DNA from: Clostridium saccharobutylicum DSM 13864
GTDB lineage: Bacteria > Bacillota > Clostridia > Clostridiales > Clostridiaceae
Direction: 5' to 3'
NCBI RefSeq assembly: GCF_000473995.1
Contig: NC_022571.1
Location: forward strand, 2,301,416-2,325,415
DNA: 24,000 nucleotides
Part shown: in pieces, positions 1-20,482 of the stretch
Layout of the letters: every line of letters begins with the position of its first letter
Numbering within the stretch: the first letter of the stretch is position 1
Notes under the pieces: generated by a model
Told to the model about the DNA's origin: nothing
Seen by the model: only the letters and a program-made list of their open reading frames with translations
The model's database searches: none
Program-made: the position numbers and the translations under genes

Positions 1-1737
1 GAAGCAAGCGCAGCTTCAAGAGAGCTTGGTGCTACAATGACTCAAATAGCTACTGGAGCAGTACAAGCATCATCCGCAGCAGAAGAATCAAGAGCAGCAG
101 TAAATCAGATAGATAAAGCTTCTATTGTAGGAATGCAAAGGGCAAAGGAATCATTAGATAGAATGACTGAGGCTCAAGCACTAATAAGAACAACAGCAAG
201 AGATACAGAGCAGCTTATATTAGGAATTGGAGAAGCAGCAAAAACGAATCTTGAATCAGTTAAGTTAATAAATGAACTTGAAAAACAGTCTGATGAAATA
301 GGTGACATTGTACAAGCAGTGGTACGAATAGCTGATCAAACTAATTTGCTTGCTCTTAATGCTGCTATTGAAGCTGCTAGGGCAGGGGAACATGGAAGAG
401 GTTTTGCTGTAGTGGCAGATGAAGTGAGAAATTTAGCAGAGATATCTGAGAAATCTGCTCGTAATATAACAGACTTAGTAGATGAAATACAAAAAAATGT
501 TAAAATTGTTGTTACTGATATAGAAGCTTCAGGAAAAGCCGCAAACGAAGAAATTGAAAAAGCTAAAAAAATTACAGAGGATTTAGTAAAAGTTGAAGAA
601 GATGTTATCATAGTGCAACGTGGTATAAATGAAATTGAAGAAAACTCAACAGATGCAAATAATGGGGCTTCTGAATTTTTAGAAATATCTGAACAAATAG
701 CAGCAGCAGCAGAAGAGCAAACCAGTGCAGCAGAAGAAGTAGAGAGATCAATAGAAGAGCAAAATAAAGCATTTGAAGAATTAAATATAGCATCTTCTGA
801 ACTATCACAGTTATCAGAAGAATTAAAAGTATCAACAGATACACAAAAATCATCTGAAATACTTGCATCTACAGCTGAAGAACTTTCTTCAAATGTCGAA
901 GAGGCAAATTCAGTTGCAACAGAGATAATGAGAGCTATTGAACAAGTTGCAATAGGAGCTGAAACTCAAGCAAACTTGACAGAAAAAGCAGCATTAATTA
1001 GTGAAAGATTAGCTGCTGGAGCAACACAAATGAATTCAACATCAATTGAATCCGGAGAAAAAGTTACAGAGCTTCAGCAATTACTTGATGAGAACAAACA
1101 AGGAGTAGATGTAATGATAGATGGAATTAGTTCATCTGCAGAGGCTAGTAATGTGGCTGCAAAGAATATCAAGAATCTAGAGGAAACTACTAGAAAAATT
1201 GATAAAATTGTAGATGCAATTGTAAATGTAACAATTCAAACTAATATGTTAGCAGTTAATGGATCTATAGAAGCAGCTAGAGCAGGTGAATTTGGAAGAG
1301 GTTTCTCAGTAGTAGCAGGAGATATAAGAACATTAGCAAATGAATCAGCTGAGAATACAGATAAGATAAAAGATTTAGTTAGAGGAATTCAAAGTCAGAT
1401 TACAAGAGTTGCTATGGATATAGAATTATCTAGCAAGACTTCTTTCGCTGAGGTTGAAAAGGCAAAAACAATAACGGATAATTTAAATTTGATTCAAGAT
1501 GGCATGAATGTTATTTTAATTGGAACAAACGAAATTTCTAAAGGCTCTGAAGAAACTATGGTAGCACTTGAACAAGCTAAAAAGGGAGTTGAACAAATTT
1601 CATCAGCAGCTACAGAAACATCTGCAGCTACAGAAGAAGCGAGCAATGTGGCAACAGAGCAATCTAAAGGAATGCAAGAACTTGCAGAGGCTATAGAGGA
1701 GATAGCAGGGCTTGCAGATGAGTTACAAAATATGTAA
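1..1737 (+). CDS. Methyl-accepting chemotaxis protein with two tandem signalling (MA) domains. It is 5'-truncated by the window edge, and the ATG at 37 is internal.
   Basis: Frame 1 is open from nt 1 ([12 protein letters not shown] precedes the ATG at 37). There are two MCP hairpin-tip signatures: [35 protein letters not shown] (tip Glu codon at 388-390) and [37 protein letters not shown] (tip Glu codon at 1288-1290), exactly 300 codons apart. Each is followed by A/E/Q/S/T-rich methylation-helix-like segments ([20 protein letters not shown]; [20 protein letters not shown]). No hydrophobic TM stretch occurs in the visible part. Confidence 0.9.
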
Positions 1738-1755: not shown

Positions 1756-3225
1756 ATGGCTTCTATAGAAAACAATTTGAGTTTAACAGAAAGACAGTTG
1801 GTAACTTTCCATCTTGGAAACGATGAATTTGGTGCAGATATAATGAATGTAAAAGAAATAGTAAGAGTTTCCGAAATTACAAAAGTACCCAATGTGCCAT
1901 TCTATGTGGAGGGTGTCTGCAATCTTAGGGGAAATGTACTTCCTATCATAGATGGTAGGACAAGATTTAACATGGAAAAAAAGGATAAAGATGAGAACAG
2001 TAGAGTACTTGTAATTGATATAAATGGCAGGGCTACGGGTGTAATAGTAGATAGAGTTTCAGAAGTAATGAGAATAAATTCTTCAGAAATTGAAGCTACT
2101 CCAAGTATAATGAGAACAGAAAATATGGACTATTTAAGTGGAGTATTGAAACTTGATAATGGTAACCGGATTATATTGCTTTTAGATTTATTAAAAGTTT
2201 TAAATGTTGAGGAAGTTCAAAATATTGATTTAAAAGATTTTAGTACTGATTTAGAAAAAATAGATAATTTCATAGAAAAAGAAAAAATAAATGAAGAACA
2301 GTTAGTTTCTTTTATGGTTGATAAAGAAGAATATGCAATAAATATAATGCAGGTAAAAGAAATAATAAGAGTTATTGATATAGTGAAAGTTCCGAGTACT
2401 GAAGATTATATTGAAGGTGTAGTATCAATAAGAAATAATCTGTTGCCAATTATTAATTTGCGAAAATATTTTGGTTTAGAGATTTCACAAATCAATGATC
2501 ATACTAGAATTTTGATAGTTGATATGGGAAAAATAACCTGTGGAATAATGGTGGACAAGGTTTCAGAGGTGAAAAGAGTTCAAGAAAGTATTATACAGCC
2601 ACCACCAAGTATTTTTTCTAATGAAGAAGAGCCTCTTAAGGGGGTAGCTAAATTAGATGGTGGAAAAAGACTTATTATGATTTTAGAACCGACAAAGTTA
2701 ATATCCCTAGAAAGATTAGAAAAAATTGCAGGGCTTGAAGAAAATAAAGAAGAAAATTTTAAAACTATCGAAAAACAATTGCTAGCTGAAGAGCAATTAG
2801 TGACTTTTAAGATAGATCGTGAAGAATATGCTATAAAAATAAATTCTGTTCAAGAAATAACAAGAATGACAGAAATAACAAGAATTCCAAGAGCTCCATA
2901 TTTTATTGATGGTATTGTAAATCTTAGAGGAAATATTATACCGGCACTTGACTTAAGAAAACTATTTGAAATGGAGGAAAAAGAAGTAACAGATTCAACT
3001 CGAATTATCATTGTTGATTTAGATAATAAGAAAACAGGAATAATAGTTGATGAAGTTTCTGAAGTTTTAAGATTTGAAAAAAATCTTATAGAAAGTTCAC
3101 CAGGTATCTTAAGTAAAAGTAAAAGTAATAAATATATTGATGGAGTTGGTAAGATAGATAATGGAAATAGAATGGTTATAATACTGGAATTAAATCAAAT
3201 ACTAAATTTCAATAATAATATTTAA
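1756..3225 (+). CDS. cheW: Coupling protein with three tandem CheW domains
   Basis: Three repeats of the CheW core pattern: LVTFHLGNDEFGADIMNVKEIVRV...VEGVCNLRGNVLPIID; LVSFMVDKEEYAINIMQVKEIIRV...IEGVVSIRNNLLPIIN; LVTFKIDREEYAIKINSVQEITRM...IDGIVNLRGNIIPALD. Each is followed by a ...GIIVD.VSEV... segment. GGAGGGG RBS lies 7 nt upstream of the ATG. Confidence 0.9.
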   Translation: MASIENNLSLTERQLVTFHLGNDEFGADIMNVKEIVRVSEITKVPNVPFYVEGVCNLRGNVLPIIDGRTRFNMEKKDKDENSRVLVIDINGRATGVIVDRVSEVMRINSSEIEATPSIMRTENMDYLSGVLKLDNGNRIILLLDLLKVLNVEEVQNIDLKDFSTDLEKIDNFIEKEKINEEQLVSFMVDKEEYAINIMQVKEIIRVIDIVKVPSTEDYIEGVVSIRNNLLPIINLRKYFGLEISQINDHTRILIVDMGKITCGIMVDKVSEVKRVQESIIQPPPSIFSNEEEPLKGVAKLDGGKRLIMILEPTKLISLERLEKIAGLEENKEENFKTIEKQLLAEEQLVTFKIDREEYAIKINSVQEITRMTEITRIPRAPYFIDGIVNLRGNIIPALDLRKLFEMEEKEVTDSTRIIIVDLDNKKTGIIVDEVSEVLRFEKNLIESSPGILSKSKSNKYIDGVGKIDNGNRMVIILELNQILNFNNNI

Positions 3226-4459: not shown

Positions 4460-6349
4460 GTGCTGATTGAGATAGATTTTTATGAGCTTCAAGAAATGAA
4501 TGAAAGTAATATTGAATATCTTATAAATGAACTTAAAAATGAAAAAGATAAATATACTCAAGAAATAATTGCGAATAGAATTGGACAATTTAAATCTGAA
4601 TACACTGCAAATTTAGTTGGAAAAATGCTTGAAATAGAAGATACCCGTATTCGAAATACAGCTATAGAAATATTACAGGATATGGGCGAAATGTGTATTA
4701 ATACTATAAGCAAAATGGTTTATCATAATGATAAAAATGTAAGAAAATTCATATTAGATATAATAAAAGAAATAAAAACTGAGAAAAGCAGTTTAGTTGC
4801 GTTGGCTGCATTAAATGACAATGACGACAACATAGTTCAAACAGCTGTAGAAATAGTAAATTATAATAGATACATTCCTGCTATTCCTAAGTTATTAGAT
4901 ATTTTAAAAGTAACTAATAATATATGGATAATTGTTGCTTTAATCAATGCCTTTTCTACACTAGGAGAAAAATCTGCTGCACAGCATATAGAAGAGAGAT
5001 TAGATGAAATTAGTTTATCAACTTTAGAAAAAAATATTATTATTAATTATTATGTTAAGGCCCTAGGTGATATAGGTTCAATTAGGCACTTAGAGAAGAC
5101 TATGACTATATACAAGAATATGTTTCAAATTGATGATGATAATTTAGATTACTGCATTAATGGAATAGTTACTAGAAATGAAGTTGATACCTTAAGCTTA
5201 GATGTCATAAGTTTGATCCAAGAATATTATGAAGATAAAATTAATTCTAAAAATCCGAAGTTAACCTTGGATAATATTAGAACAGCAGTAAAATTAGGAT
5301 TTATATTTTCTATAGATAGTATAGAACTTTTAAAAGAATTGCTAATAAATTCTCCGAGCGAAGATTATTTTGAAGGTTTATTTGAAATAGTAGCGAATCA
5401 AAAAGATTTATCTAAAGATATTATCTCAGAGCTTATAAAGCATAATGATTCCCAAATAAACGTGTTTACTTTAAGGCTTATTAGAAGAAGGCGAATTTTA
5501 GGATTTAATGAATTTGTAAAAAGTTTTCTGATTAGTGGAATAGATACTAATATGTGCGTTGAGGCTTTAAATGTTGTTACAAGAATTGAAAGCTATTATG
5601 ATAAGGAGATTTTAAATCGATTTGTTAATTGCAATAATCATGAATTGAGTAAGATTGCAATACAAGGGATAAAGCTTGAATCAGTAAGTGATAGAGACAC
5701 TTTAATGAAGATATTTATTGGTTCTAATACTGATTTAAGAAAAATTATAGTAAAAAGGTTTATAGAAAATAGTAAATTTATAGATATTGATAAAATTATA
5801 GAAATAATTAGAGAAGCGAAAGATTCTGCCATAGTAGAGGCGTTAGAAATTTTGTTTTACATAGATAGTAAAAGGGCTGGAGAAGTTATTGATGAAACTT
5901 TAGATAATGAAGATAAAGAGATAAGAAAAAAAATAGTTAGAATAATGAAGTTAATTGGAACTGATGATGATTTCTATAAATACATGTACATTATGGCTCA
6001 AGATTGTGAAGCAGAAGTAAGAAGAGTAGTCATAAGGGAGATAAGCAAAGAAAGTAAGCATAGAGCATTTGTTTTTCTTAAGGGGCTTTTGGAAAGCGAA
6101 AACGACGTGCAAAATAAATATGAAATTATATGTAATCTTTATAAGTATAAATTTGAGGATTGTTACAAACTAATAGTTCAAAATTTAGAGAACAGTAATC
6201 TTCTCTTGAAAATTGCAGCCATTACAAGCTTAGGAGCATATGGAGATAAACGAGCAATAGAATATTTAAGTGAACTAATTAAAGATATAAATCCTGATAT
6301 CAGAGAGTGTGTACAAGAGGCGCTTTATAGATTGGAAGTGGTTAAGTGA
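4460..6349 (+). CDS. HEAT-repeat (PBS-lyase-type) protein of unknown function
   Basis: Recurrent helical-repeat motifs of the D..VR..A...L type: EDTRIRNTAIEILQDMG, NDKNVRKFILDIIKEI, DNIVQTAVEIV, EDKEIRKKIVRIMKLIG, CEAEVRRVVIREISK, NPDIRECVQEALYRL. The GTG start at 4460 is uncertain, and the in-frame ATG at 4496 is an alternative. The stop overlaps the cheR start. Confidence 0.7.
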   Translation: MLIEIDFYELQEMNESNIEYLINELKNEKDKYTQEIIANRIGQFKSEYTANLVGKMLEIEDTRIRNTAIEILQDMGEMCINTISKMVYHNDKNVRKFILDIIKEIKTEKSSLVALAALNDNDDNIVQTAVEIVNYNRYIPAIPKLLDILKVTNNIWIIVALINAFSTLGEKSAAQHIEERLDEISLSTLEKNIIINYYVKALGDIGSIRHLEKTMTIYKNMFQIDDDNLDYCINGIVTRNEVDTLSLDVISLIQEYYEDKINSKNPKLTLDNIRTAVKLGFIFSIDSIELLKELLINSPSEDYFEGLFEIVANQKDLSKDIISELIKHNDSQINVFTLRLIRRRRILGFNEFVKSFLISGIDTNMCVEALNVVTRIESYYDKEILNRFVNCNNHELSKIAIQGIKLESVSDRDTLMKIFIGSNTDLRKIIVKRFIENSKFIDIDKIIEIIREAKDSAIVEALEILFYIDSKRAGEVIDETLDNEDKEIRKKIVRIMKLIGTDDDFYKYMYIMAQDCEAEVRRVVIREISKESKHRAFVFLKGLLESENDVQNKYEIICNLYKYKFEDCYKLIVQNLENSNLLLKIAAITSLGAYGDKRAIEYLSELIKDINPDIRECVQEALYRLEVVK

Positions 6350-7188
6350 TATTATCGGAGATTTTATATGAGAAGTTTACAGAGTTCATTTATAGAAAAA
6401 CAGGATTATACTACGAGACTAATAAAAAATATTTTGTAGAAAAAAGAATTGAAAATCGCACTATTGAATTAGGTTTTTCAGATTACAAAGAATATTATAA
6501 TCTTATAAAATTCTCTGTTGATGAAACCGAATTTTATAAACTTGTTAATGATTTAACAGTTAATGAAACTTATTTTTTTCGCGATTTTCCACAACTTCAG
6601 AATTTTGCAGAAAAGGTGCTTCCAATTATAGTAAAAGAAAAGGAAAAAAATAATGATTACACCCTCAATATATGGAGCGCGGCTTGTTCTAGAGGTGATG
6701 AACCATATACTTTAGCTATAATACTAAATGAGATGTTAGATAAACCAGAAAAATGGGATATTAAGATAACGGCATCGGATATTAATGATGAAGTTCTTAA
6801 ATTTGCAAAAATAGGTGCATATGATAATAGATCAATAAAAGATGTACCACCGGAGTATCTTAATAAATACTTTGTAAAAAGAAATGAAAAATATTTAGTT
6901 AATTTGAAGATTAGGAAACCATTGGAATTTAAAAGGTTAAATTTTTTTGATTTTAGTGAAATGAAAAAAATGATAAATTATGATGTTATTTTTTGTAGAA
7001 ATGCTCTGATTTATTTTAATGACCAATCAAGAAAAACAGTAATAGATAGTTTTTATTACAGTTTAAATCCAGGAGGTTTTATATTCCTCGGTCATTCAGA
7101 GTCTATAGGAAGAATAAGTTCTGCTTTCCAAGCTAAAAGAATTGGAAGTGGAATAGTTTATTCAAAACCTTTCAGAGAGGATTTGTAA
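6346..7188 (+). CDS. cheR: CheR chemotaxis protein methyltransferase
   Basis: VNETYFFRD, NIWSAACSRGDEPYTLAIIL, ITASDIN, VIFCRNALIYFN and GGFIFLGHSES motifs. The GTG start overlaps the upstream stop (GTGA). Confidence 0.92.
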   Translation: MILSEILYEKFTEFIYRKTGLYYETNKKYFVEKRIENRTIELGFSDYKEYYNLIKFSVDETEFYKLVNDLTVNETYFFRDFPQLQNFAEKVLPIIVKEKEKNNDYTLNIWSAACSRGDEPYTLAIILNEMLDKPEKWDIKITASDINDEVLKFAKIGAYDNRSIKDVPPEYLNKYFVKRNEKYLVNLKIRKPLEFKRLNFFDFSEMKKMINYDVIFCRNALIYFNDQSRKTVIDSFYYSLNPGGFIFLGHSESIGRISSAFQAKRIGSGIVYSKPFREDL

Positions 7189-7190
7189 GT

Positions 7191-7559
7191 ATGAAAAAGA
7201 TATTGATTGTTGATGATTCAGAAATGGTTAGAAATTTTTACAGCTATATTTTAAAAGTGTTTTCCATGGAATCAGATACGGCAGAAAATGGCTTAGTTGC
7301 TTATGAAAAAATATTAGAGAGTGAATTCAGTGTTATTATTACTGATATAAATATGCCAAAAATGAATGGGTATGAATTAGTAGAAGAAATAAGAAGATTA
7401 GAAATAAAGACTCCTATAATAGTAGTATCTACTCAGGATGAGCAAAAAGAAATATTAAAAAGCATGAAAGCTGGCGCGAATATATTTCTTATTAAACCTA
7501 CAGAACCTGATAAATTTATACATACAGTTAAAGAAATCCTTAGAAAAGAGAGTGTGTAG
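7191..7559 (+). CDS. Single-domain response regulator (CheY-like receiver)
   Basis: KILIVDDSEMVR, VIITDINMPKMNGYEL, IIVVSTQ and FLIKP give the full set of receiver acidic pocket, phospho-Asp, Thr/Ser and Lys positions. It lies 2 nt after cheR and 2 nt before cheA. Confidence 0.85.
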   Translation: MKKILIVDDSEMVRNFYSYILKVFSMESDTAENGLVAYEKILESEFSVIITDINMPKMNGYELVEEIRRLEIKTPIIVVSTQDEQKEILKSMKAGANIFLIKPTEPDKFIHTVKEILRKESV

Positions 7560-7561
7560 GT

Positions 7562-9799
7562 ATGAGCTATACGTTTGAAAGTACAGATTTAGAAATATTA
7601 AATTTATTTATAGAAGAAGCTGTAGAGTCTTCAAATCAAGTTGAAAAAGAAATATTAAAACTTGAAACAAATGCAGAGAAGGATGAGTTGATTAATGATG
7701 TTTTTAGAGCTATTCACAGTATAAAAGGCGGCTCATCATTTTTAGGTCTTGTAGGAATTACAAAATTAAGTCATAGGATGGAGACTGCATTAGATTATTT
7801 AAGGAAAAAAAAGATAGAGATAAGTACTGAATTTGTGGATTGTTTTATAGAAGGATTAGATTTGCTAAGCAGTTTTATATATGATATCCAAGATAAAGTT
7901 AATATTATAAATTCTGAAGGAATAGAAGGAAAATTTGAAATAGAATTAAAAAACGAAGATAAAATTGCAGAGATTCTTGTTAAAGTTGAGAATATCTTAG
8001 ATAATGAACAAGAAAAAGTCAAAGAAGAAGTAAAAGATGATAAAAGCGAAGAGGCGTTCTTTTTTGAAATTGATCCTAAAGATTTAGATGAATTTAAAGA
8101 ACAATTTATAACAGAAGCTTTAGAACATATAGAAAAAGTAGAGAATGACTACTTGGTTAAGCTAGATAAAAACGAAAATGATGCAATCACAATAAATGAT
8201 CTTTTTAGAAGTATTCATAGTATAAAAGGTATTACTGGTGTATTGTTAGGAATACTAAAAGAAGATAATAATTGTTTTGCTTGTGTTAAGGGTATATCGT
8301 TAGTGTCTCATTCTTTTGAGACTTTATTGTCAATTTTTAGAGATAAAAATTTTAGTTTCAAAAGGGAAGATATTAATTTAAGTTATGAAATTATAGATTA
8401 TATAAAATTATGTGTAAGTGTAATCAGCGGAGTTAGCGAAGTTTATATACCTGCGCAGATAATTCTTGATAAAATTAATAAACAAATTGAAAATTTATCA
8501 AAGGATTTAAAGGAACATTCAGAACAGGAAAATAAAAAAATAAAAAATGAAAGTAATTCTAATACTAATGATGAAGTGATAAAAGAAGCACTAAAAAAAG
8601 AAACTCAGTTGCAAAGCATACGTGTTAATCAAGAAAAGCTAGATAAAATGATGAATACTATTGCTGAACTTATGGTAACAAAGAATGCTTTTATGCATGT
8701 TTCTAGGAGATTAAATTTAGAATATAATATTCCGGATCTTGCAAAGGAAGTAAAGGAAATTGGCGCATCTGTAAATAGAATTTCAGATGAATTGCAAAAT
8801 TCTATGATGTCTATGCGAATGATAGAAGTAAAAACAGTATTTCAAAAAATGCCAAGAATTATAAGGGATGTATCTCAAGTTACTAATAAAAAGGTCAATT
8901 TAATTATTGAGGGAGAAAGTACTGAAATAGATAAAACCATAGTGGAACGGATTAGTGATCCGTTGGTACATATAATTAGAAATGCAGTAGATCATGGTAT
9001 TGAAGACCCTAAAATTAGAGCTGAAAAAGGCAAAAATGAAATAGGTACAATATATTTACGTGCTTATAATAAGAACAAGAATGTATATATTGAGGTTCAG
9101 GATGACGGAAAAGGTATTGATAGTGAAGAAATAACAAAAAAAGTTATAGATAAAGGTTTTATAGAACCCAGTGTATTAAATAATATGAATAAGAAACAGA
9201 TATTAAATTTAATCTTTCTACCTGGTTTTAGTACAGCTAAGAAGATAACCGAAGTATCAGGCCGAGGTGTAGGCATGGATATAGTTAAAAGCAATATAAC
9301 AAAAATAAATGGAATTGTTAATATTGATAGTGAGGTTAATGAAGGTACAAAGATGACAATTCAATTACCTCTTACTTTAGCTGTATCAAGAGGTTTACTA
9401 ATACAAAGTGTTGCAGAAAATTATATTATACCAATAGATAATATAATTGAGACTGTAAAAATTCATAAAGATAATATTTATGAATTTAATAATAAACATT
9501 TTGCTCACATGAGAGGAGAAATAATAGGAATAGAATGGTTAAGCAAACTTCTATTAATAGGTGGACTTAAAAATAACATTGAAGAAGTAGAAGAGTTAAG
9601 CATAATTTTAATTACTAACGGAATTGAGAAGTTAGGATTGGTAGTGGACAAGTTATTAAATGAACAAGAATTTGTAATTAAAGCATTAAGTGATTGCCTT
9701 GGAGAGATACCGGGAATATCTGGTTCCACTTTACTTGGAGATGGAAAGGTAGTCTTGATATTGAACTCTGGAGATATAATAAAAATGGCAAGAAAATAG
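7562..9799 (+). CDS. cheA: CheA histidine kinase with two N-terminal HPt (P1) domains
   Basis: HPt signatures FRAIHSIKGGSSFLG (His52, CAC 7715-7717) and FRSIHSIKGITGVL (His219, CAT 8216-8218). A dimerisation-like segment follows (QSIRVNQEKLDKMMNTIAELMV), then an ATPase core (DPLVHIIRNAVDHGIE, VQDDGKGID, GRGVGMDIV) and a C-terminal CheW-like P5 (LLIQSVAENYIIPIDNI...GDGKVVLILN). Confidence 0.93.
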   Translation: MSYTFESTDLEILNLFIEEAVESSNQVEKEILKLETNAEKDELINDVFRAIHSIKGGSSFLGLVGITKLSHRMETALDYLRKKKIEISTEFVDCFIEGLDLLSSFIYDIQDKVNIINSEGIEGKFEIELKNEDKIAEILVKVENILDNEQEKVKEEVKDDKSEEAFFFEIDPKDLDEFKEQFITEALEHIEKVENDYLVKLDKNENDAITINDLFRSIHSIKGITGVLLGILKEDNNCFACVKGISLVSHSFETLLSIFRDKNFSFKREDINLSYEIIDYIKLCVSVISGVSEVYIPAQIILDKINKQIENLSKDLKEHSEQENKKIKNESNSNTNDEVIKEALKKETQLQSIRVNQEKLDKMMNTIAELMVTKNAFMHVSRRLNLEYNIPDLAKEVKEIGASVNRISDELQNSMMSMRMIEVKTVFQKMPRIIRDVSQVTNKKVNLIIEGESTEIDKTIVERISDPLVHIIRNAVDHGIEDPKIRAEKGKNEIGTIYLRAYNKNKNVYIEVQDDGKGIDSEEITKKVIDKGFIEPSVLNNMNKKQILNLIFLPGFSTAKKITEVSGRGVGMDIVKSNITKINGIVNIDSEVNEGTKMTIQLPLTLAVSRGLLIQSVAENYIIPIDNIIETVKIHKDNIYEFNNKHFAHMRGEIIGIEWLSKLLLIGGLKNNIEEVEELSIILITNGIEKLGLVVDKLLNEQEFVIKALSDCLGEIPGISGSTLLGDGKVVLILNSGDIIKMARK

Positions 9800-9817: not shown

Positions 9818-10189
9818 ATGGATAATAAATGTAAAATTTTGATAGTAGATGATTCGCCAATGATTCATGCTTTAATAAAAAGGGCTCTAGAAAATGATGA
9901 ATTTACAATTTGTGGTTCTGGTAAAAACGGCAAGGATGGAGTAGAAAAATACAAAGAATTATCACCTGATATTGTAACAATGGATATAACGATGCCAGTT
10001 ATGGATGGTTTAGAAGCTTCAAAAGAGATAATGAGCATAAATCCAAAAGCAAAGATTGTTATGCTGAGCGCAATGGGAGATGAAGAAATAATTGAGACTG
10101 CTAACCAAATAGGCATAAATTATATAATAAAAAAACCTTTTAACAAAGAAGAACTTCTCGATGTATTAAAAAAAGTACTTGAAGACTAA
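9818..10189 (+). CDS. cheY: CheY response regulator
   Basis: KILIVDDSPMI, PDIVTMDITMPVMDGLEA, IVMLSAMG and IIKKPF. GTAGAGGG RBS upstream. Confidence 0.88.
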   Translation: MDNKCKILIVDDSPMIHALIKRALENDEFTICGSGKNGKDGVEKYKELSPDIVTMDITMPVMDGLEASKEIMSINPKAKIVMLSAMGDEEIIETANQIGINYIIKKPFNKEELLDVLKKVLED

Positions 10190-10226
10190 ATAACTAGATA
10201 AATTTATTTATTATAAGGAGATATTT

Positions 10227-10712
10227 ATGAATACAAGTTTCGTGACAGCATTTACTGATAATATTATTACAACATTTATAAAAATGGCAGATATAAAATT
10301 AACTTCAGATGGTGAAGCGTATAAAGATAATAGTGATATAACTTCATTTGGTATTACGTCTATTATATCTTTTGCAGGAAAAGGCAAGGGTAGATTACTA
10401 TTAGATATAGAAACTAATTTAGCTATGAAAATAGCCAAAAACATAATGGGGGAAGATTATGATAATCCAAGGGATGATATGCTGCTTGCTACAATAGGAG
10501 AATTAAATAACACTATAACAGGTGCAGCTATTACAGATATTAATAATTCTTTTTCAGTAAGTTTAAGACTTTCTCCACCAATAGTATTTACAGGAAAGGA
10601 TGTAGTTATCGCCATACCTAAAATAAACTCTATATCTAGAATTTATACAACTGAGTATGGAAATTTAAAAATGAATATAGCTTTTGAAGGAGGTAGTTTT
10701 GATGGATGTTAA
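10227..10712 (+). CDS. CheX/CheC-family CheY-P phosphatase-like protein (copy 1)
   Basis: About 160 aa with a single CheC-family active-site-like motif, IGELNNTITGAA...LSPPIVF (E-x2-N ... P). AAGGAG RBS lies 7 nt upstream. The size fits CheX rather than two-site CheC. Confidence 0.7.
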   Translation: MNTSFVTAFTDNIITTFIKMADIKLTSDGEAYKDNSDITSFGITSIISFAGKGKGRLLLDIETNLAMKIAKNIMGEDYDNPRDDMLLATIGELNNTITGAAITDINNSFSVSLRLSPPIVFTGKDVVIAIPKINSISRIYTTEYGNLKMNIAFEGGSFDGC

Positions 10713-11163
10713 ATGTATAAATCCATTTCTAGATTCTGTAAAGAGTGTTTTAGAACAGCTGGGAATTACTGATATAAAGATGTCTGGTTTAAACAAAAAA
10801 GAAAAGATGTTTGTTGACTTAGAAATAACATCTATGATAGGTATTGTTGGAGATATAAGAGGAAATATATCATATTCAATGTCAGAGGAGAGCGCTAAAA
10901 AGGTTATTTCTATAATGATGATGGGAATGAGTATTGACAAGATAGATGAAGTTGGTAGAAGTGCAATAGGGGAGCTTACTAATATGATAACAGGTAATGC
11001 ATCTACACTCCTTTATAGCAATGGGTATTTAACTGATATTACACCACCATCAACTATTTTGGGAAAGGATATGTATTTCATTATTAGTACTGTAGAAACA
11101 ATAACTATAGAAATTGATACTTCTATAGGAAGAATAGAAGTAAACATAGGATTAGAAGTATAA
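10702..11163 (+). CDS. CheX/CheC-family CheY-P phosphatase-like protein (copy 2)
   Basis: MDVKCINPFLDSV... with IGELTNMITGNAS...ITPPSTILG. The ATG at 10702 is preferred over the TTG at 10684 because GAAGGAGG (10687-10694) lies about 8 nt upstream. It overlaps the copy 1 stop by 11 nt. Confidence 0.7.
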   Translation: MDVKCINPFLDSVKSVLEQLGITDIKMSGLNKKEKMFVDLEITSMIGIVGDIRGNISYSMSEESAKKVISIMMMGMSIDKIDEVGRSAIGELTNMITGNASTLLYSNGYLTDITPPSTILGKDMYFIISTVETITIEIDTSIGRIEVNIGLEV

Positions 11164-11262
11164 AAACAAAAGCAAAATATATAAATAATTTAATTAGAGA
11201 ATCAGATGTGATCTACTAGAAATTACATAATAAATTAAAATGATTTGGAAGGACGGAAAATA

Positions 11263-12123
11263 ATGAGCAATACTAATGAGAACGCTAAAATTATTAAAAA
11301 CAGAGAAACAATTTTAGAAAAATGGTTACTTGAATTAAACTCACACAAACTTATAGGTAGTGGAGTTTTTCAAGAAAGAGAAGTAGAAGAAATGGGAAGA
11401 AAAATTTTCAATGCTTTTCTGACTATGCTTAAGTTAAATGATGAAATAAATTGGGGGAGTAATGATCTTGTAGAAATAGGCCAGATAGTTGCAGAATTTT
11501 CTAAAAAGATGGCTACAAGAGGGCAGACTCCAACTGTAGCAACTAATTTTATTTATTCTTTAAAGAGTATTGTATTTGAATCTCTTCAAGATTATTATAG
11601 TGATTCTCAAGAACTATTAAATAAGGAAATTATTAGAATATCGGATGTTTTGGATAAAATTGGTTTACGTTCTTTTGATTATTTTGTACAAGAAAGAGAA
11701 GAAATTATTAAAGTGCAACAAGAAGATATGATGGAATTATCTACACCAGTAATAAAAATATGGGATGGGATATTAGCAGTGCCACTTATAGGGACACTAG
11801 ATAGTAAGAGGACCCAGTTGATAATGGAAAAATTGCTAGAAATGATAGTTAATACATCTTCAAAAGTTGCTATAGTAGATATCACAGGAGTTGGAACTGT
11901 AGATACTTTAGTTGCAAATCATCTAATAAAAACGGCGACAGCTACAAAGCTTATTGGTGCCGAGATAATAATTACAGGAATTAGTCCTGTAATAGCTCAA
12001 ACTATAGTTCATTTGGGTGTTGACTTATCAGGAATGATAACAAGGGCAATTATGGAGGATGGAATAAAATTAGCAATGGAAATGTGTAGTTACAAAGTAG
12101 TTAAAGCAATAAATAATATTTAA
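11263..12123 (+). CDS. rsbR: RsbR-type stressosome sensor/scaffold protein (N-terminal RsbR-type helical domain plus C-terminal STAS)
   Basis: The C-terminal STAS closely follows the RsbR pattern: STPVIKIWDGILAVPLIGTLDSKRTQLIMEKLL...VAIVDITGVGTVDTLVANHLIK...GAEIIITGISPVIAQTIVHLGVDL. Thr residues are retained at the positions phosphorylated in B. subtilis RsbRA. The ATG at 11263 is preferred over the TTG at 11245 (GGAAGGA RBS). Confidence 0.85.
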   Translation: MSNTNENAKIIKNRETILEKWLLELNSHKLIGSGVFQEREVEEMGRKIFNAFLTMLKLNDEINWGSNDLVEIGQIVAEFSKKMATRGQTPTVATNFIYSLKSIVFESLQDYYSDSQELLNKEIIRISDVLDKIGLRSFDYFVQEREEIIKVQQEDMMELSTPVIKIWDGILAVPLIGTLDSKRTQLIMEKLLEMIVNTSSKVAIVDITGVGTVDTLVANHLIKTATATKLIGAEIIITGISPVIAQTIVHLGVDLSGMITRAIMEDGIKLAMEMCSYKVVKAINNI

Positions 12124-12136
12124 ATGGAGAGTAGTC

Positions 12137-12553
12137 ATGGGAAAAATTCCAATTATAAAAATAAGAAACTTTTTGATTGTATCACTTGATGGTGATTTAA
12201 CAGATAAATCAGCTATTAAGCTGCAATCTGATATACTTAATAAGGTTTATGAAAATACAGTGAAGGGCGTTTTAATAGATATATCAATTTTGGATATGGT
12301 GGATTCATATCTAGGTAAAATTATAGCTGATATGTCAGCAATGATTAAATTATTAGGAGCAGAAACAGTTCTTGTAGGCATGAAGCCCAATGTAGCTATA
12401 ACACTTGTAGAGATGGGATTTAATATAGACGGAATTGCTACTTCAATGAATGTTGAAACTGGAATAGAAATGTTAGAGAATATAATAAAATCAAATGCAA
12501 TTCAAGAAGTTTTTTTTAATGAATTGTTGAAAGTGAGAAATGATGATATGTAA
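12137..12553 (+). CDS. rsbS: RsbS-type single STAS stressosome protein
   Basis: IPIIKIRNFLIVSLDGDLTD...VLIDISILDMVDSYLGKII...GAETVLVGMKPNVAITLVEMGF. The Ser in DMVDSY aligns with the RsbS phospho-Ser position. TGGAGAG RBS upstream. The stop overlaps the rsbT start. Confidence 0.8.
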   Translation: MGKIPIIKIRNFLIVSLDGDLTDKSAIKLQSDILNKVYENTVKGVLIDISILDMVDSYLGKIIADMSAMIKLLGAETVLVGMKPNVAITLVEMGFNIDGIATSMNVETGIEMLENIIKSNAIQEVFFNELLKVRNDDM

Positions 12554-12938
12554 TGAAATTTCTATTGAGTATGAAAAGGATATAGTTGTTGCAAGGCAAA
12601 AGGCAAGAGAAGTATCCAAAATTCTAGAGTTTGGAATTGTAGATCAAACAAGAATTATTACTGCTGTTAGTGAACTGGCAAGGAATATATTTCTATATGC
12701 ACAAAAAGGAACGGTCAAATTTCAAGAAGTTTTTGAAGATAGAAAGCACGGATTGCAAATTTCTTTTATGGATGATGGGCCTGGAATTGAAGATGTAGAA
12801 TTTGCAATGCAGGGTGGATATTCTAAAGGCCGCAGTATGGGGCTTGGAATGTCTGGAAGTAAGAGATTGATGGATGAATTTTACGTAACTTCATTATTAG
12901 GGAAGGGAACAGAGATCATAATAAAGAAATGGTTGTGA
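12540..12938 (+). CDS. rsbT: RsbT-type serine kinase / switch protein
   Basis: From memory it aligns near full length with B. subtilis RsbT: DIVVARQKAREVSKILEFGIVDQTRIITAVSELARNIFLYA...DDGPGIEDV...GLGMSGSKRLMDEF...GKGTEIIIKKWL. Confidence 0.88.
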   Translation: MMICNEISIEYEKDIVVARQKAREVSKILEFGIVDQTRIITAVSELARNIFLYAQKGTVKFQEVFEDRKHGLQISFMDDGPGIEDVEFAMQGGYSKGRSMGLGMSGSKRLMDEFYVTSLLGKGTEIIIKKWL

Positions 12939-12971
12939 TATTTATTTGATTTTTGATGGTGATACATTTAT

Positions 12972-14018
12972 ATGGAAATATTTGAAATAAGTAACGATTG
13001 GGATATAGGAAAAGTTAGAAGATATATAGCAGAAAAGAGCAAAGAAACAGGATTTTCTAGTATAGAAATAGGAGAAATATCCATTGTAGTTAATGAACTT
13101 TGTTCAAATTTAATAAAGCATCATTCAGTTGAAGGTAAACTAATATTTAAAAAATTAGAAATGAACGGAAGAGTTGGAATTGAAATTATAGCTGAGGATA
13201 AAGGCCCTGGAATTCTTAATGTGGATGAGGTTATAAAAGATGGAATATCTACAAAGGGGACAATGGGTGGGGGACTTGGAGCAACTAAAAGATTAATGGA
13301 CAGCTTTGAACTTTATTCTAGAACAAGTACTAATCGAGGAAAGTATATTGGATATGGACACTTGGGGGGGAATAATAGAATTGGAACTATTGTTATAACT
13401 CAGAAATGGCTTAAAAATAGCTTATATATAGGAACAAAAGAAGTTAAGATAAGTGTAATGAGTAGACCTTATATGGGATGTAAAATAAACGGAGATGTAT
13501 ATTACATTAAAGAATTTAATAATAAAGTAATTTTTGCACTTATAGATGGTTTAGGTCATGGAATAGAGGCTAACAAAGCTGCAATTAGAGCAAAAGAATT
13601 GCTAGAGGAAAATAATTATAAGTCATTAAAGGAATTGCTTTATAGTATTGATAATGGTATGAAAAATACAAGAGGTGCCGTAATTGGTGTATGTATAATT
13701 GATAAGGAGACAAAGAGATTTCAATATGGAAGTATTGGAAATGTTCAGCTAAGGTACATCTTAAATAACAAAACTAAAAAATTTATAGCTACTAATGGTA
13801 CTTTGGGTGTTTCTCTTAATACGAGAGTCAATGTACAGCAAAGCTCATATGAAAATGGAGGAATTATAGCGATGAACACAGATGGCATATCAGATAAATG
13901 GGAGTATGATGAATATTTGGATATACCAGTACATAATCCTGCGGTGCTTTCTAACATGATATTTAGAGATTTTGCAAGAGATAATGATGATGCGACTGTT
14001 TTAGTGGCAGTTATTTAG
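12972..14018 (+). CDS. rsbX: Fusion protein: RsbT/RsbW-like GHKL kinase-type N-domain plus RsbX-like PP2C (SpoIIE-type) phosphatase
   Basis: N-terminal half: IGEISIVVNELCSNLIKH...EDKGPGILNV...GGGLGATKRLMDSFE. C-terminal half: NGDVYYIKEFNNKVIFALIDGLGHGIEANKAA...TRGAVIGVCIID...YGSIGNV...AMNTDGISD...DDATVLVAVI, collinear with B. subtilis RsbX as I remember it. Confidence 0.8.
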   Translation: MEIFEISNDWDIGKVRRYIAEKSKETGFSSIEIGEISIVVNELCSNLIKHHSVEGKLIFKKLEMNGRVGIEIIAEDKGPGILNVDEVIKDGISTKGTMGGGLGATKRLMDSFELYSRTSTNRGKYIGYGHLGGNNRIGTIVITQKWLKNSLYIGTKEVKISVMSRPYMGCKINGDVYYIKEFNNKVIFALIDGLGHGIEANKAAIRAKELLEENNYKSLKELLYSIDNGMKNTRGAVIGVCIIDKETKRFQYGSIGNVQLRYILNNKTKKFIATNGTLGVSLNTRVNVQQSSYENGGIIAMNTDGISDKWEYDEYLDIPVHNPAVLSNMIFRDFARDNDDATVLVAVI

Positions 14019-14028
14019 AGGATAATTT

Positions 14029-15000
14029 ATGAGCAAAGATAGGGAATACCTGATTAGAAGAAATATTGAATTAGAAGAACAAGTTGGAGATCTAACAAAG
14101 GAACTTATTCAAACTAATCACGAAGTACTTAATATTTTACAAGCTTTTGAGGATTTGAATAAAGATATGTTGAGTAACGATAAAGAAAAAAATGAGTTTC
14201 TGACTAAACTTAAGATTTCTAACAAAGAACAGTTAGAAAAAATTAAAATGCAGGAAAATGCTTTAATCCAGGCTGATAAGTTAGCTTCCTTAGGGCAGCT
14301 TATTGCTGGAATAGCTCATGAAATCAATAATCCAAATACGTATATAAGAGCAAATATAGAACTTTTGCAAAAATATTGGAAGCTGTTAGAAAAAAAAATA
14401 AGTGTAGATGAAGGGGATTTCTGTACATCAATTGTAAGCGATGTTCCAAACATTATGACTTCCATGTATAAAGGAACAGAGAGAATAATGGAAATAATAA
14501 GTGCACTTAAAGCTTTTTCGAAAGAAGAAAAGTTATTTTATGAAAAAATAAATATAAATCAATTTATAGAGGAAGCGTACAAATTAATTAAGGTTGAATT
14601 AACAAAAAATAAGGTAATCTTGATTAATAAAGTTAATCAAGACGGATATGAAATAAATGCATCTAAGCAGAAAATAGAACAAGTTCTAATTAACCTATTT
14701 TTAAATTCGATTAAAGCAATAAAACATAAAAAAGAAGAAAATGGTCAAATTATTATATTTGCATCAGAAGATAAGGATATTCTTAATATTTCTATAAAGG
14801 ATAATGGTTGCGGAATAAATAAAGAGCATTTAGATATGATTTTTAATCCATTTTTCACTACTCACCAAGAGGATGGTGGAACTGGACTCGGATTATCTAT
14901 AGTACACGGAATTATGAAGGAACACGGGGGAAGTATTAAGGTACAGAGCAAAATAAATGAAGGTACAGAGTTCACTCTTATATTTCCTAAGGGTAGGTGA
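14029..15000 (+). CDS. Cytoplasmic histidine kinase without a recognisable sensor domain (coiled-coil N-terminus, HisKA, HATPase)
   Basis: H-box LASLGQLIAGIAHEINNPNTYI (His97). ATPase motifs QVLINLFLNSIKA, IKDNGCGI, FNPFFTT and GGTGLGLSIVHGIMKEHGGSI. Residues 1-80 are charged and heptad-like, and no TM segment is present. Confidence 0.88.
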   Translation: MSKDREYLIRRNIELEEQVGDLTKELIQTNHEVLNILQAFEDLNKDMLSNDKEKNEFLTKLKISNKEQLEKIKMQENALIQADKLASLGQLIAGIAHEINNPNTYIRANIELLQKYWKLLEKKISVDEGDFCTSIVSDVPNIMTSMYKGTERIMEIISALKAFSKEEKLFYEKININQFIEEAYKLIKVELTKNKVILINKVNQDGYEINASKQKIEQVLINLFLNSIKAIKHKKEENGQIIIFASEDKDILNISIKDNGCGINKEHLDMIFNPFFTTHQEDGGTGLGLSIVHGIMKEHGGSIKVQSKINEGTEFTLIFPKGR

Positions 15001-15006
15001 TAAAAT

Positions 15007-16431: not shown

Positions 16432-16841
16432 AAAAGGAATATAAAATACTGATAATCGATGATGAAGAAGAGATTTTATTATCATTAAAAAAGAATCTTA
16501 TACTTGAAGGATATAATGTAGAGACATGCAATGATTCAGTAGAAGCACTGGAAATGATAAAAAACAATAAGTTTCATATTGTAATAACTGATATTGTAAT
16601 GCCTAATATGAATGGTATAGATCTTTTGAAAGCAGCTAAAGCTTATGATGCATTGACACAAGTAATAATGATGACTGGATATTCAACAATGGAAATAACA
16701 ATACAATCTTTAGAATTCGGAGCAAATGATTATATTCTTAAACCTTTTAAAAGTATTGAATATATTATTGAAATTATAGATTACTCTATACAGAAGTTAG
16801 AGAGATGGAGAGAGTCCATAAGGGGACTTGTATCAAAATAA
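16428..16841 (+). CDS. Stand-alone response regulator receiver with a short helical C-terminal tail
   Basis: KILIIDDEEEIL, HIVITDIVMPNMNGIDLL, VIMMTGYS and YILKPF. The ATG overlaps the upstream stop (ATGA). Confidence 0.88.
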   Translation: MKKEYKILIIDDEEEILLSLKKNLILEGYNVETCNDSVEALEMIKNNKFHIVITDIVMPNMNGIDLLKAAKAYDALTQVIMMTGYSTMEITIQSLEFGANDYILKPFKSIEYIIEIIDYSIQKLERWRESIRGLVSK

Positions 16842-17318: not shown

Positions 17319-18083
17319 ATGATTAATGAACCTTTGAAATATGCAGTACTTAATAATAAAGGTGGTGTGGGAAAAAGTACAATTTCTGTACATATTGCAC
17401 ATGGACTTGCCCTTCTAGGGAATAAAGTATTGTTGATTGATATGGATGGACAAAATGATGCAAGTTTATTTCTTGGCATTTCTGATCAAGATTATAAAAA
17501 GACATTTTACGATTTGATTAACAAAAGAGAGGATGTTGAACTTTCAGAGTGCATAATTAATGTAAGGGATAATTTGGACTTACTCCCATCTAAGCACATA
17601 GACATTATAAATACAGAGTTTTATAGAGAATCAAGAATTGATTTAATACTAAAAGAAAAATTACAAGGCATAAATACCATGGAGTATAACTATCTTATTA
17701 TTGACTGTGGACCTCAACGAAGTAAAGTTAATGATGCAGTTTTATGCTTTGTTGATAACATAATAGTTCCAGTTCAGGTAGAATCAGCATCCGTTAGAGC
17801 TATTGGAAATATATATGAGTATCTATCTGACTTAAGATTGAATCCAGAGATGATAGAGTTAATAATACCTAATATGTATGATCAAAGAACAAGTGAATCT
17901 AGGGAGAACATGCAGCTGCTTAAAGAATTATTTTCAGAAAGTAATTTTTTGGCTGAACCAATCAATAGAAGAGTAAAGATTACAGAAGCAGGGAAATTAG
18001 GGAAAACCGTATATGAATATGATAAAGATTCTGCTAAACAGTTTTTTAAAATAGTTGAGAGGCTGGTAAGCACAAATGCCTAG
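17319..18083 (+). CDS. ParA/MinD-family (deviant Walker A) ATPase
   Basis: VLNNKGGVGKSTISVHIAHGLALLGNKVLLIDMDGQ (KGGxGKS with signature Lys), YNYLIIDCGP (Walker B-like). TAGGAGG RBS upstream. The 3' end overlaps the next gene by 8 nt. Confidence 0.88.
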   Translation: MINEPLKYAVLNNKGGVGKSTISVHIAHGLALLGNKVLLIDMDGQNDASLFLGISDQDYKKTFYDLINKREDVELSECIINVRDNLDLLPSKHIDIINTEFYRESRIDLILKEKLQGINTMEYNYLIIDCGPQRSKVNDAVLCFVDNIIVPVQVESASVRAIGNIYEYLSDLRLNPEMIELIIPNMYDQRTSESRENMQLLKELFSESNFLAEPINRRVKITEAGKLGKTVYEYDKDSAKQFFKIVERLVSTNA

Positions 18084-19881
18084 AAGTAAGGTAAATAAAG
18101 AGGTATTAAACAGTATTGATAAGATAAAACAGGAAATTAATAAAAAGAAACAAAAGGCTATAGAATCACATAATTCCAATGAATTTATACTTGAAAAAGA
18201 TAAGTTAAGTAATGATAATTTAGAGTTGTCCAATAATAAAAGTATTGATAAAGTCAATATTAATATTGGTGAAGGAAAAAAAGACATCAATAAAGCAATC
18301 AAAAGTACAAAGAAAGTACATAAAGCTGCCAATAAAGAAACTAAAAGTGCTAGTAAAAGAACTAAAAGTGTGGCAAAAAAGTGTGAAAGTGTAGATGAAA
18401 AAAATAAAAATAGTAGTGAAAATGCAGATAAAAGGCAAGGCGATGAAACCAAGTATGTAATTTTTGTGGTGAACAATGAAGAATATGCAATAGAATTAGT
18501 TAATGTAAAAGAGATAATTAGGATACCAAAAATTAAGAAAGTACCTAATTCTGTTTATGTTGAAGGAGTATTTAATTTAAGAGGGGAACTTGTTACTATA
18601 ATTGATATTCATAAGAGATATAACATATCTAAAAGTGAATATAAAGATAATAGCAGAGTCATAGTTATGGAATTTGGCGGCTGTATTGTAGGCATTATTG
18701 TTGATAAAGTTTTACAGGTGTTAGCTGTTCATAAATCATATATAAAATTAATATGTGAAAATACTGATGATACGAAGGAAGGCTATATTGATGGCATTAT
18801 AATGATTGAAAATGGAAAAAGATTAATTATGATTATGGATGCACAAAGTATCATAAATATAAATGGTCTTGGAAGTATTTTAGTCAATGCATATAAAAAA
18901 TCAAATGAAAAAGTATCAGCTTTTATTAAGGATATTGAAGAAAATGAGCAGCTAATAATTTTTAGTATAAATGATGTTGAGTATGCATTTCATATATCCG
19001 AAATAAAGGAAGTTATTAGAATTCCAAATGTTGTAAAGGTACCAAATTCTTCGGATTTTATAGAAGGTATTATTTCATTAAGAAATGAACTCATTGGAGT
19101 AGTAAACCTTGCTAAAATTATAAATATAGATAGTGAAAGTATCAGCAAAGACCGAAGCATACTCATAGTTAATACAGGAAATTTAATATATGGAGTAATT
19201 GTTGATAAAGTTTCAGAAGTAAAATTGGTTTCAAAAAAAGATTTATTAAAGCCATGGCAAGTTGTTGGAAATATTGATGTTAAAATAGTGAAAGAATTTG
19301 CTAATATGGATAATGGTAAAAGAGTAGTTACAATATTGGATCCATATAATATTTTAAATCTTGAGGAAATACAATGGAATTTTAAGGTTAATGAAATCAC
19401 TGAAATTGTTTCAAATAATTATAATAAATCTACATTAGATTTAAAAAAAATAATAAAAAGTATTGTGATTTTTAAAATAGAAAATGAAGAATATGGAATT
19501 AGTATTGATTTTGTTCAAGAAATTAATACAATTAATAAAATTACAAGCTTCCCTAATAGACAAAATGCTGTTGAAGGATTAATAAATTTAAGAGGAGATA
19601 TGATTCCATTAATTAATTTACGAACATTGTTTGGTTTAGAAATTCAGAGTAAAGATTCTTATTTCAAAACTTTAATTGTAAAAATAAATAATAAGAAAGT
19701 AGGAATTCGCATTGATTCAGCATCAGAAGTTCTAAACCTTTCAGAGGATATATTTCAAGATTATTTTGAAGATTTAAATGCAGATAATAATAGAAGATAT
19801 GTAGAGGGAATTATAAAGCCGAATGATGGTAAACGAATTATTCTTTATCTTAACATAAATGAAATTTTAGATTTTATATAA
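18076..19881 (+). CDS. Protein with a roughly 125-aa Lys-rich N-terminal tail followed by three CheW domains
   Basis: Tail: MPRSKVNKEVLNSIDKIKQEINKKKQKAIE...KSTKKVHKAANKETKSASKRTKSVAKK. CheW cores: YVIFVVNNEEYAIELVNVKEIIRI...VEGVFNLRGELVTIID; LIIFSINDVEYAFHISEIKEVIRI...IEGIISLRNELIGVVN; IVIFKIENEEYGISIDFVQEINTI...VEGLINLRGDMIPLIN. Confidence 0.85.
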   Translation: MPRSKVNKEVLNSIDKIKQEINKKKQKAIESHNSNEFILEKDKLSNDNLELSNNKSIDKVNINIGEGKKDINKAIKSTKKVHKAANKETKSASKRTKSVAKKCESVDEKNKNSSENADKRQGDETKYVIFVVNNEEYAIELVNVKEIIRIPKIKKVPNSVYVEGVFNLRGELVTIIDIHKRYNISKSEYKDNSRVIVMEFGGCIVGIIVDKVLQVLAVHKSYIKLICENTDDTKEGYIDGIIMIENGKRLIMIMDAQSIININGLGSILVNAYKKSNEKVSAFIKDIEENEQLIIFSINDVEYAFHISEIKEVIRIPNVVKVPNSSDFIEGIISLRNELIGVVNLAKIINIDSESISKDRSILIVNTGNLIYGVIVDKVSEVKLVSKKDLLKPWQVVGNIDVKIVKEFANMDNGKRVVTILDPYNILNLEEIQWNFKVNEITEIVSNNYNKSTLDLKKIIKSIVIFKIENEEYGISIDFVQEINTINKITSFPNRQNAVEGLINLRGDMIPLINLRTLFGLEIQSKDSYFKTLIVKINNKKVGIRIDSASEVLNLSEDIFQDYFEDLNADNNRRYVEGIIKPNDGKRIILYLNINEILDFI

Positions 19882-20128: not shown

Positions 20129-20482
20129 ATGAAAAAAGTTTTGATTGTTGATGATGCAGTTTATATGAGACTTTCTTTAAGGGACATATTAGAAAGAAAT
20201 GGATTTGAAGTTATAGGGGATGCGGTAAATGGAATAGATGCTATTAATAAATATAAAATGTTAATCCCAGACATTGTAACTATGGATATAACAATGCCAG
20301 AAATGGATGGAGTTAAAGCATTACAGGAAATAAAAAAGTTAGATCCAAATGCTAAGGTAGTAATAATATCTGCAATGGGTCAAGAATCTATTGTTAGAGA
20401 AGCAATAATGAATGGTGCTAAAGGATTTATAATAAAACCTTTTAAAGAAGAAAAAGTTATTCAGTCATTAAGTAAGATATAG
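20129..20482 (+). CDS. cheY: CheY response regulator
   Basis: KVLIVDDAVYMR, PDIVTMDITMPEMDGVKA, VVIISAMG and FIIKPF. GAGGAG RBS upstream. Confidence 0.9.
   Translation: MKKVLIVDDAVYMRLSLRDILERNGFEVIGDAVNGIDAINKYKMLIPDIVTMDITMPEMDGVKALQEIKKLDPNAKVVIISAMGQESIVREAIMNGAKGFIIKPFKEEKVIQSLSKI

Follow-up and report, generated by a model that had tools for sequence, protein, structure and literature searches.

A double-signalling-domain soluble chemoreceptor of the DosM type at the head of an F9-class chemosensory operon in Clostridium saccharobutylicum DSM 13864

The window analyzed is a stretch of 24,000 nt of the Clostridium saccharobutylicum DSM 13864 genome (contig NC_022571.1, positions 2,301,416 to 2,325,415 of the forward strand). 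It begins inside a chemoreceptor gene, which is followed by a long series of chemosensory genes and accessory genes. In window coordinates, the genes and gene blocks are as follows.

1..1737, + strand: dosM homologue, residues 85-662 and stop codon, the 3' part of a 662-aa open reading frame (ORF)
1756..3225, + strand: CheW3, a 489-aa protein of three concatenated CheW domains (E = 1.9e-109), starting 18 nt after the dosM stop codon
3315..4433, + strand: CheB, with receiver (REC) and methylesterase domains
4460..6349, + strand: 629-aa HEAT-repeat protein, corresponding to the '.' that separates B from R in the F9 order as published
6346..7188, + strand: CheR
7191..7559, + strand: CheY
7562..9799, + strand: CheA, with Hpt, dimerisation, HATPase_c and CheW-like P5 domains
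9818..11163, + strand: a further CheY gene and two genes for CheX phosphatases, matching Y-X-X in the published order
11245-16841: block of RsbR-like, STAS, RsbT-like, GHKL-PP2C fusion, histidine kinase, kinase-less Hpt-P2 and receiver genes
17319..19881, + strand: ParA-type ATPase and a second triple-CheW protein (601 aa, 18076-19881), the start of which it overlaps
20129..20482, + strand: CheY after the second CheW3, the 'W3Y' of the published order
20901-22127: Mutator-family (IS256-like) transposase at the 3' end of the chemosensory locus

The operon headed by dosM has the order DosM-CheW3-CheB-HEAT-CheR-CheY-CheA-CheY-CheX-CheX, and ParA, the second CheW3 and a CheY are found farther on. 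The multi-CheW proteins and the ParA gene on which the first-pass annotation had drawn are present as two triple-CheW proteins and a ParA-type ATPase, and the ParA/second-CheW3 pair is a probable array-positioning pair. No gene for a partner receptor was found within the dosM operon.

The 5' end of dosM lies outside the window, and an additional sensor domain, a transmembrane (TM) region or even a third MA module had been considered possible there. In the 12 kb of upstream sequence taken from the genome, the dosM frame opens only about 100 codons before the window. The start codon is an ATG at genome position 2301164, 252 nt 5' of window nt 1 and preceded at a distance of 8 nt by AGGAGG; the frame is open from window nt 1 up to the stop codon at 1735-1737, giving a protein of 662 aa. 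The 84 residues encoded off-window consist of a short basic peptide, a low-complexity linker and the beginning of the first helix, and they contain no TM segment, sensor domain or third MA module. Recovery of the upstream sequence has therefore defined the N-terminus and removed these possibilities, and the TM helices with a periplasmic domain that would have pointed to normal membrane topology are not encoded there. Further upstream, dosM is preceded by an AT-rich spacer or leader of about 450 nt, in which no promoter-like site stands out above chance. A strong intrinsic terminator with a 19-bp stem (genome positions about 2300670-2300710) ends an unrelated upstream gene for a membrane GGDEF protein. 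Because this gene is closed by the terminator and followed by the AT-rich spacer, dosM is the first gene of its operon.

The features found within dosM are listed below in window coordinates.

70..99, + strand: methylation-consensus site (consensus match) at residue 108, in the N-terminal arm of module 1
253..699, + strand: MA (MCPsignal) domain 1 (Pfam PF00015)
325-438, + strand: core tip sequence of domain 1, 38 residues
388-390, + strand: tip Glu of domain 1, E214 (GAA codon)
700-729, + strand: methylation-consensus site (consensus match) at residue 318, in the C-terminal arm of module 1
832..840, + strand: S362-T363-D364 helix break where the two hairpin modules join (AlphaFold and conservation)
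886-915, + strand: methylation-consensus site (consensus match) at residue 380, in the N-terminal arm of module 2
1156..1605, + strand: MA (MCPsignal) domain 2 (Pfam PF00015)
1225-1338, + strand: core tip sequence of domain 2, 38 residues
1288-1290, + strand: tip Glu of domain 2, E514 (GAA codon)

In a whole-genome scan with a PF00015 cut-off of 34.6 bits, the two MA copies pass separately (125.8 and 100.9 bits) and lie in one open frame. Among the 58 MCP-like ORFs of the genome, dosM is the only one with two MA domains. The tip residues E214 and E514 are exactly 300 codons apart, and 148 residues follow E514 up to the stop codon. The translation is Ala/Glu-rich and all-helical. No TM segment was found over the whole 662 aa, the highest Kyte-Doolittle hydropathy of any 19-residue stretch being 1.07, which is well under TM values, and Pfam and NCBIfam searches of the protein returned MCPsignal alone and no sensor domain. 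The first-pass annotation had described two complete MA modules in one polypeptide, tip Glu codons at nt 388 and 1288 with this spacing and tail, and the absence of a visible TM segment; all of this is borne out, the last point also for the recovered N-terminus. It had also allowed that one MA copy might prove degenerate on careful alignment. Neither copy is, as both tips retain the invariant core ending in R.LA.

The two modules can be aligned with each other without gaps over 299 residues (34% identity), and both align without gaps in the arms to the ordinary transmembrane MCPs of the same genome, which have 154-155 residues after the tip. The heptad class, which the first-pass annotation had left to be assigned by alignment, is that of 44H-length receptors for both modules, as judged only from length and gapless alignment. 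PDB searches by sequence and by fold pick the Thermotoga maritima 44H receptor 2CH7, and one DosM module superposes on 2ch7_A over 298 columns with a TM-score of 0.70 on the target (Foldseek). A long soluble MCP of the F11/F13 type, with one very long hairpin and a single tip, was considered and rejected, given that DosM carries two tips.

Sites matching the methylation consensus occur at residues 73, 80, 108, and 318 of module 1 and at residue 380 of module 2. The acidic pair at these sites varies among EE, QE, and EQ between orthologues, as it does at genuine adaptation sites. Together with the adjacent cheB and cheR genes, this pattern suggests that DosM may be adapted like a normal receptor and would not serve only as a passive strut. 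The N-terminal peptide MEKKLAKP (residues 1-9 are encoded at genome positions 2301164-2301190) is also conserved, with L5 invariant and A6 and P8 at least 90% conserved among 33 homologues. After it comes a linker of some 30 residues, variable in sequence and predicted to be disordered (pLDDT < 50). In distant DosM members, the N-terminus is of the MALVK(K/T) type instead. The MEKKLAKP peptide may serve to dock ParA, the HEAT protein or the adaptation enzymes.

The two tips differ in sequence. The signature of tip 1 starts with NLLALNAA and that of tip 2 with NMLAVNGS, and each is kept family-wide, in the Firmicute subfamily as well as in the distant MALVK-type subfamily. A pairing of the two tips with the two CheW3 paralogues was considered and appears unlikely, since the tip differences are equally conserved in the MALVK-type subfamily, a group defined by N-terminal peptide and not by taxon that is probably mostly proteobacterial. 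As published F9 gene orders give one CheW3 in Proteobacteria, the tip differences are probably not tied to the second CheW3.

More than 100 full-length DosM homologues with 53-82% identity were found in Clostridia, Paenibacillaceae, Heliobacteria, Desulfosporosinus, and related groups. Nearly all close homologues are 646-650 aa long, and length variation among them is confined to the N-terminal tail; both tips are seen in 116 of them, and 114 of these have exactly the 300-residue spacing and the 148-residue tail. An HMMER scan covering all 1.84 billion representatives exhaustively gave 393 representatives at E <= 1e-30, with colinear single-stretch alignments down to 29-31% identity, lengths of about 630-670 aa and, in many cases, the same 300-residue spacing. 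The distant members that could be named belong to Hyphomicrobiales, Gammaproteobacteria, Mariprofundales, Rhodocyclus, Herbaspirillum, Chromatiaceae, and Pseudomonas. No Vibrio homologue was found among the best 120 matches listed for a search seeded with a gammaproteobacterial member. A scan of genome contigs, with the genome of this strain left out, matched Firmicutes and, weakly, two alphaproteobacterial sequences only.

To address the history of the two modules, a maximum-likelihood tree was built from 31 sequences of each module and, from the C. saccharobutylicum genome, 12 ordinary MCPs. The module 1 copies form one clade (99/94), the module 2 copies form another (100/97), and both together are split from the ordinary MCPs (99/91). 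These clades indicate one ancient internal duplication that preceded the spread of the family, with both halves under selection since. By this sequence evidence, the DosM of this strain and the DosM proteins of other phyla are orthologous and share the same internal duplication. A search of 79 other sampled genomes of the genus, in which the best 14 candidates per genome were scored, gave no DosM orthologue at E <= 1e-100, and the nearest relatives are scattered over Clostridia and Paenibacillaceae. This distribution and the transposase flanking the locus fit horizontal acquisition of the locus. F9 clusters are frequently horizontally transferred (Mo et al., 2022; PMC9321776).

The F9 class of chemosensory systems has two signature components, CheW3 and DosM, the latter with double signalling domains (Mo et al., 2022; PMC9321776). 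In the same survey, full F9 clusters were found in 64 of 2,781 representative species, including 15 Firmicutes, and partial F9 sets without CheA were reported in other species; 98% of DosM homologues have two signalling domains and nothing else, and the receptor type of F9 is given as 44H (S1 Table). The S6 Table of that paper lists C. saccharobutylicum DSM 13864 with classes F1, F7, F9, and F11, and it gives the F9 order as "[DosMW3B.RYAYXX]; W3Y" together with a named DosM accession (PMC9321776). The observed order, DosM-W3-B-HEAT-R-Y-A-Y-X-X and a later W3-Y, is identical. A tblastn comparison of the locus with 31 related loci showed that DosM-W3-CheB is constant, followed by CheR and CheA, and that Hpt-P2 with a receiver, the HEAT protein, the stressosome-like block, and ParA-W3 recur as accessories. 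The block of RsbR-like, STAS, RsbT-like, GHKL-PP2C, histidine kinase, receiver, and Hpt-P2 genes recurs in other Firmicute F9 loci, where it lies between cheB and the HEAT gene; most other F9 loci have just Hpt-P2 and a receiver at that place.

Taken together, two MA domains, no TM segment or sensor domain, a CheW3 gene 18 nt downstream and a matching F9 gene order agree with the first-pass annotation of this gene as a DosM-like soluble chemoreceptor with a double signalling domain. Judged on these features, the receptor is a DosM orthologue of an F9-class cluster. The interpretation is supported but not new, because the S6 Table already lists the strain with the exact gene order and a named DosM.

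The best explanation of the data, to which we give a probability of roughly 0.85, is that the protein is the DosM orthologue of an F9 cluster, a soluble all-helical receptor of two 44H-length hairpins joined back to back, with a role in a receptor array by analogy with V. cholerae. In that species, DosM (VC1403) forms extended rods that carry one signalling domain at either end and reach into both baseplates, whose components are CheA and VC1402, a triple CheW. DosM takes up every second trimer-of-dimers position and is indispensable to the cytoplasmic array (reviewed in PMC7534058; the role of DosM is also described in PMC7184735). Likewise, a C. saccharobutylicum DosM homodimer would form a rod with a CheA/CheW-binding tip at each end and would have one tip embedded in each of two opposing baseplates of CheA and triple-CheW protein. 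The rod would nucleate and tie together a two-layered, membrane-free array that also holds ordinary single-tip soluble receptors. DosM would be methylated and adapted through the products of the adjacent cheB and cheR genes, and the ParA/second-CheW3 pair may position or partition the array. A two-layer cytoplasmic array in C. saccharobutylicum is proposed by analogy only, since the structural and cell-biological picture comes from V. cholerae.

Structure prediction bears on how the two hairpins are joined. The AlphaFold2 monomer, run with 33 homologues, has a mean pLDDT of 86.8 and contains predicted helices at residues 39-211, 213-361, and 365-661, with residues 1-37 disordered. The only mid-chain helix break is at residues 362-364, exactly 150 residues from each tip, and this position upholds the earlier proposal of equal arms of about 150 aa for each hairpin. 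Around the break, K367 is invariant and conservation reaches at least 90% at K360, S362, and T363; the S-T-D break itself is present in the Firmicute and distant subfamilies. A straight 300-residue helix between the tips would be about 44 nm long, taking about 1.48 Å per residue, whereas the baseplates of the V. cholerae F9 array are 35 nm apart (PMC7184735). The AlphaFold monomer and Foldseek confirm the hairpin fold, and extended and folded-back forms both fit. The mismatch in length and the conserved break leave room for a hinge in the modelled rod; a folded-back pseudo-dimer would also fit them but is the less likely of the two.

In the folded-back arrangement, the chain would turn back at S-T-D and hairpins 1 and 2 would share one four-helix bundle with both tips at the same end, making DosM an ordinary, heterodimer-like soluble receptor of a single-layer array. 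The predicted helix break lies exactly at 362-364, is conserved in both subfamilies and consists of residues that, by our own reading, are typical of helix caps. The consistent differences between the tips are as expected for the halves of an obligate heterodimer, the very large rmsd (123 Å) of full-length Foldseek alignments to transmembrane MCPs fits a non-collinear model, and an extended rod, at a predicted 44 nm, would be longer than the 35 nm of Vibrio. However, cryo-tomography density in V. cholerae spans both baseplates and arrays are lost without DosM (PMC7534058), and monomer predictions of obligate coiled-coil dimers often fold back artefactually. Moreover, the N-terminal helix exceeds the length required for a simple hairpin by about 23 residues, and this surplus suits an overlap joint within an extended rod. 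This arrangement therefore appears quite unlikely.

Two further alternatives concern the origin of the gene and its partners. The double architecture could lack any function and have arisen from the joining of two adjacent MCP genes, whether through an error in sequencing, the loss of a stop codon, or a tandem duplication of recent date. Nothing beyond the repeat itself favors such a fusion, whereas the modules are just 34% identical, the same architecture with identical spacing occurs in hundreds of proteins across phyla, the module tree gives one ancient duplication, and the genome is a closed single replicon. A recent fusion or assembly artefact is thus refuted by the conservation data, and its probability is negligible. 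Alternatively, instead of working with the kinase of its own operon, DosM may belong to the arrays of another of the genome's CheA systems, of which there are four more, and could for instance cross-link different arrays. The genome encodes five CheA proteins and 58 MCP-like ORFs, most of them with arms of 44H length, and partial F9 sets without CheA exist in other species (PMC9321776). Nevertheless, dosM heads an operon with its own CheW3, CheB, CheR, CheY, and CheA, and more than 25 Firmicute loci retain the same synteny, which makes an allegiance to another kinase very improbable.

The genome, a closed single replicon of 5,107,814 bp with 28.66% GC that matches the size and form given in the genome announcement of C. 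saccharobutylicum NCP262 (DSM 13864; PMC3869335), also encodes soluble receptors outside the dosM locus. Three orphan receptors consist of an MA domain only and have 44H-like arms.

Genome position 833857, + strand: 330-aa orphan MA-only soluble receptor, with a C-terminal arm of 150 residues
Genome position 4198492, - strand: 319-aa orphan MA-only soluble receptor
Genome position 4548991, + strand: 313-aa orphan MA-only soluble receptor

All three are candidate single-tip partners of DosM in a cytoplasmic array, and the 330-aa protein is the best match in length. Elsewhere in the genome, a gene at about positions 2628280-2632715 on the - strand encodes a soluble MCP of 1478 aa, whose only tip lies near residue 750 and whose very long arms are made up of internal repeats. 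Its gene adjoins genes for another CheA, CheR, and CheB, presumably the F11 system given for the strain.

A bolder reading is that the rod does more than act as a symmetric strut. Its two tips differ in conserved ways, and the basic N-terminal peptide, held on a disordered tether that would emerge at mid-rod, may bring a specific partner (ParA, the HEAT protein or CheR/CheB) inside the sandwich; the array would then be intrinsically polar, ParA-partitioned and, in Clostridia, wired to a stressosome-like input. This scenario is speculative and we consider it doubtful.

To our knowledge, the function of F9 chemosensory systems is not known in any organism, and double-layered F9 cytoplasmic arrays have been imaged only in V. 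cholerae. A solvent-producing, non-pathogenic Clostridium that is amenable to genetics and has the full F9 operon could serve as a second F9 model, and its value would come mainly from the ParA gene and the stressosome-like block in the operon. The DosM receptor itself adds nothing new, being a typical and catalogued member of its family; the small details that remain are the N-terminal peptide, the mid-rod break, the differing tips, and the lengths of 44 versus 35 nm.

Compared with known systems, the receptor is similar to VC1403 of V. cholerae cluster I (F9) in having two tandem MCP signalling domains of class 44H and neither TM segment nor sensor domain, and the loci share an adjacent triple CheW followed by cheB, a conserved gene of unknown function, cheR, cheY, and cheA; this likeness is drawn from architecture, gene order, and the BLAST-based table of Mo et al. 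Unlike V. cholerae cluster I, the C. saccharobutylicum operon adds two CheX genes, the RsbR/S/T-PP2C-histidine kinase block, the kinase-less Hpt-P2, ParA, and a second CheW3. Within the family, the Firmicute clade differs from most distant members (MALVK type) in its MEKKLAKP N-terminus. Rhodobacter sphaeroides also has a cytoplasmic two-layer array, formed with the soluble receptors TlpT and TlpC of cheOp3, and its position and inheritance depend on PpfA, a ParA-like ATPase encoded in the che operon. The cheOp3 receptors have a single signalling domain, and the system has neither a double-tipped strut nor a triple CheW. Finally, each DosM module is a hairpin of the same fold and length class as the 44H receptors TM1143 (2CH7) and soluble TM14 (3G67) of T. 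maritima; unlike these receptors, which have one hairpin per chain, DosM joins two hairpins through a conserved three-residue break.
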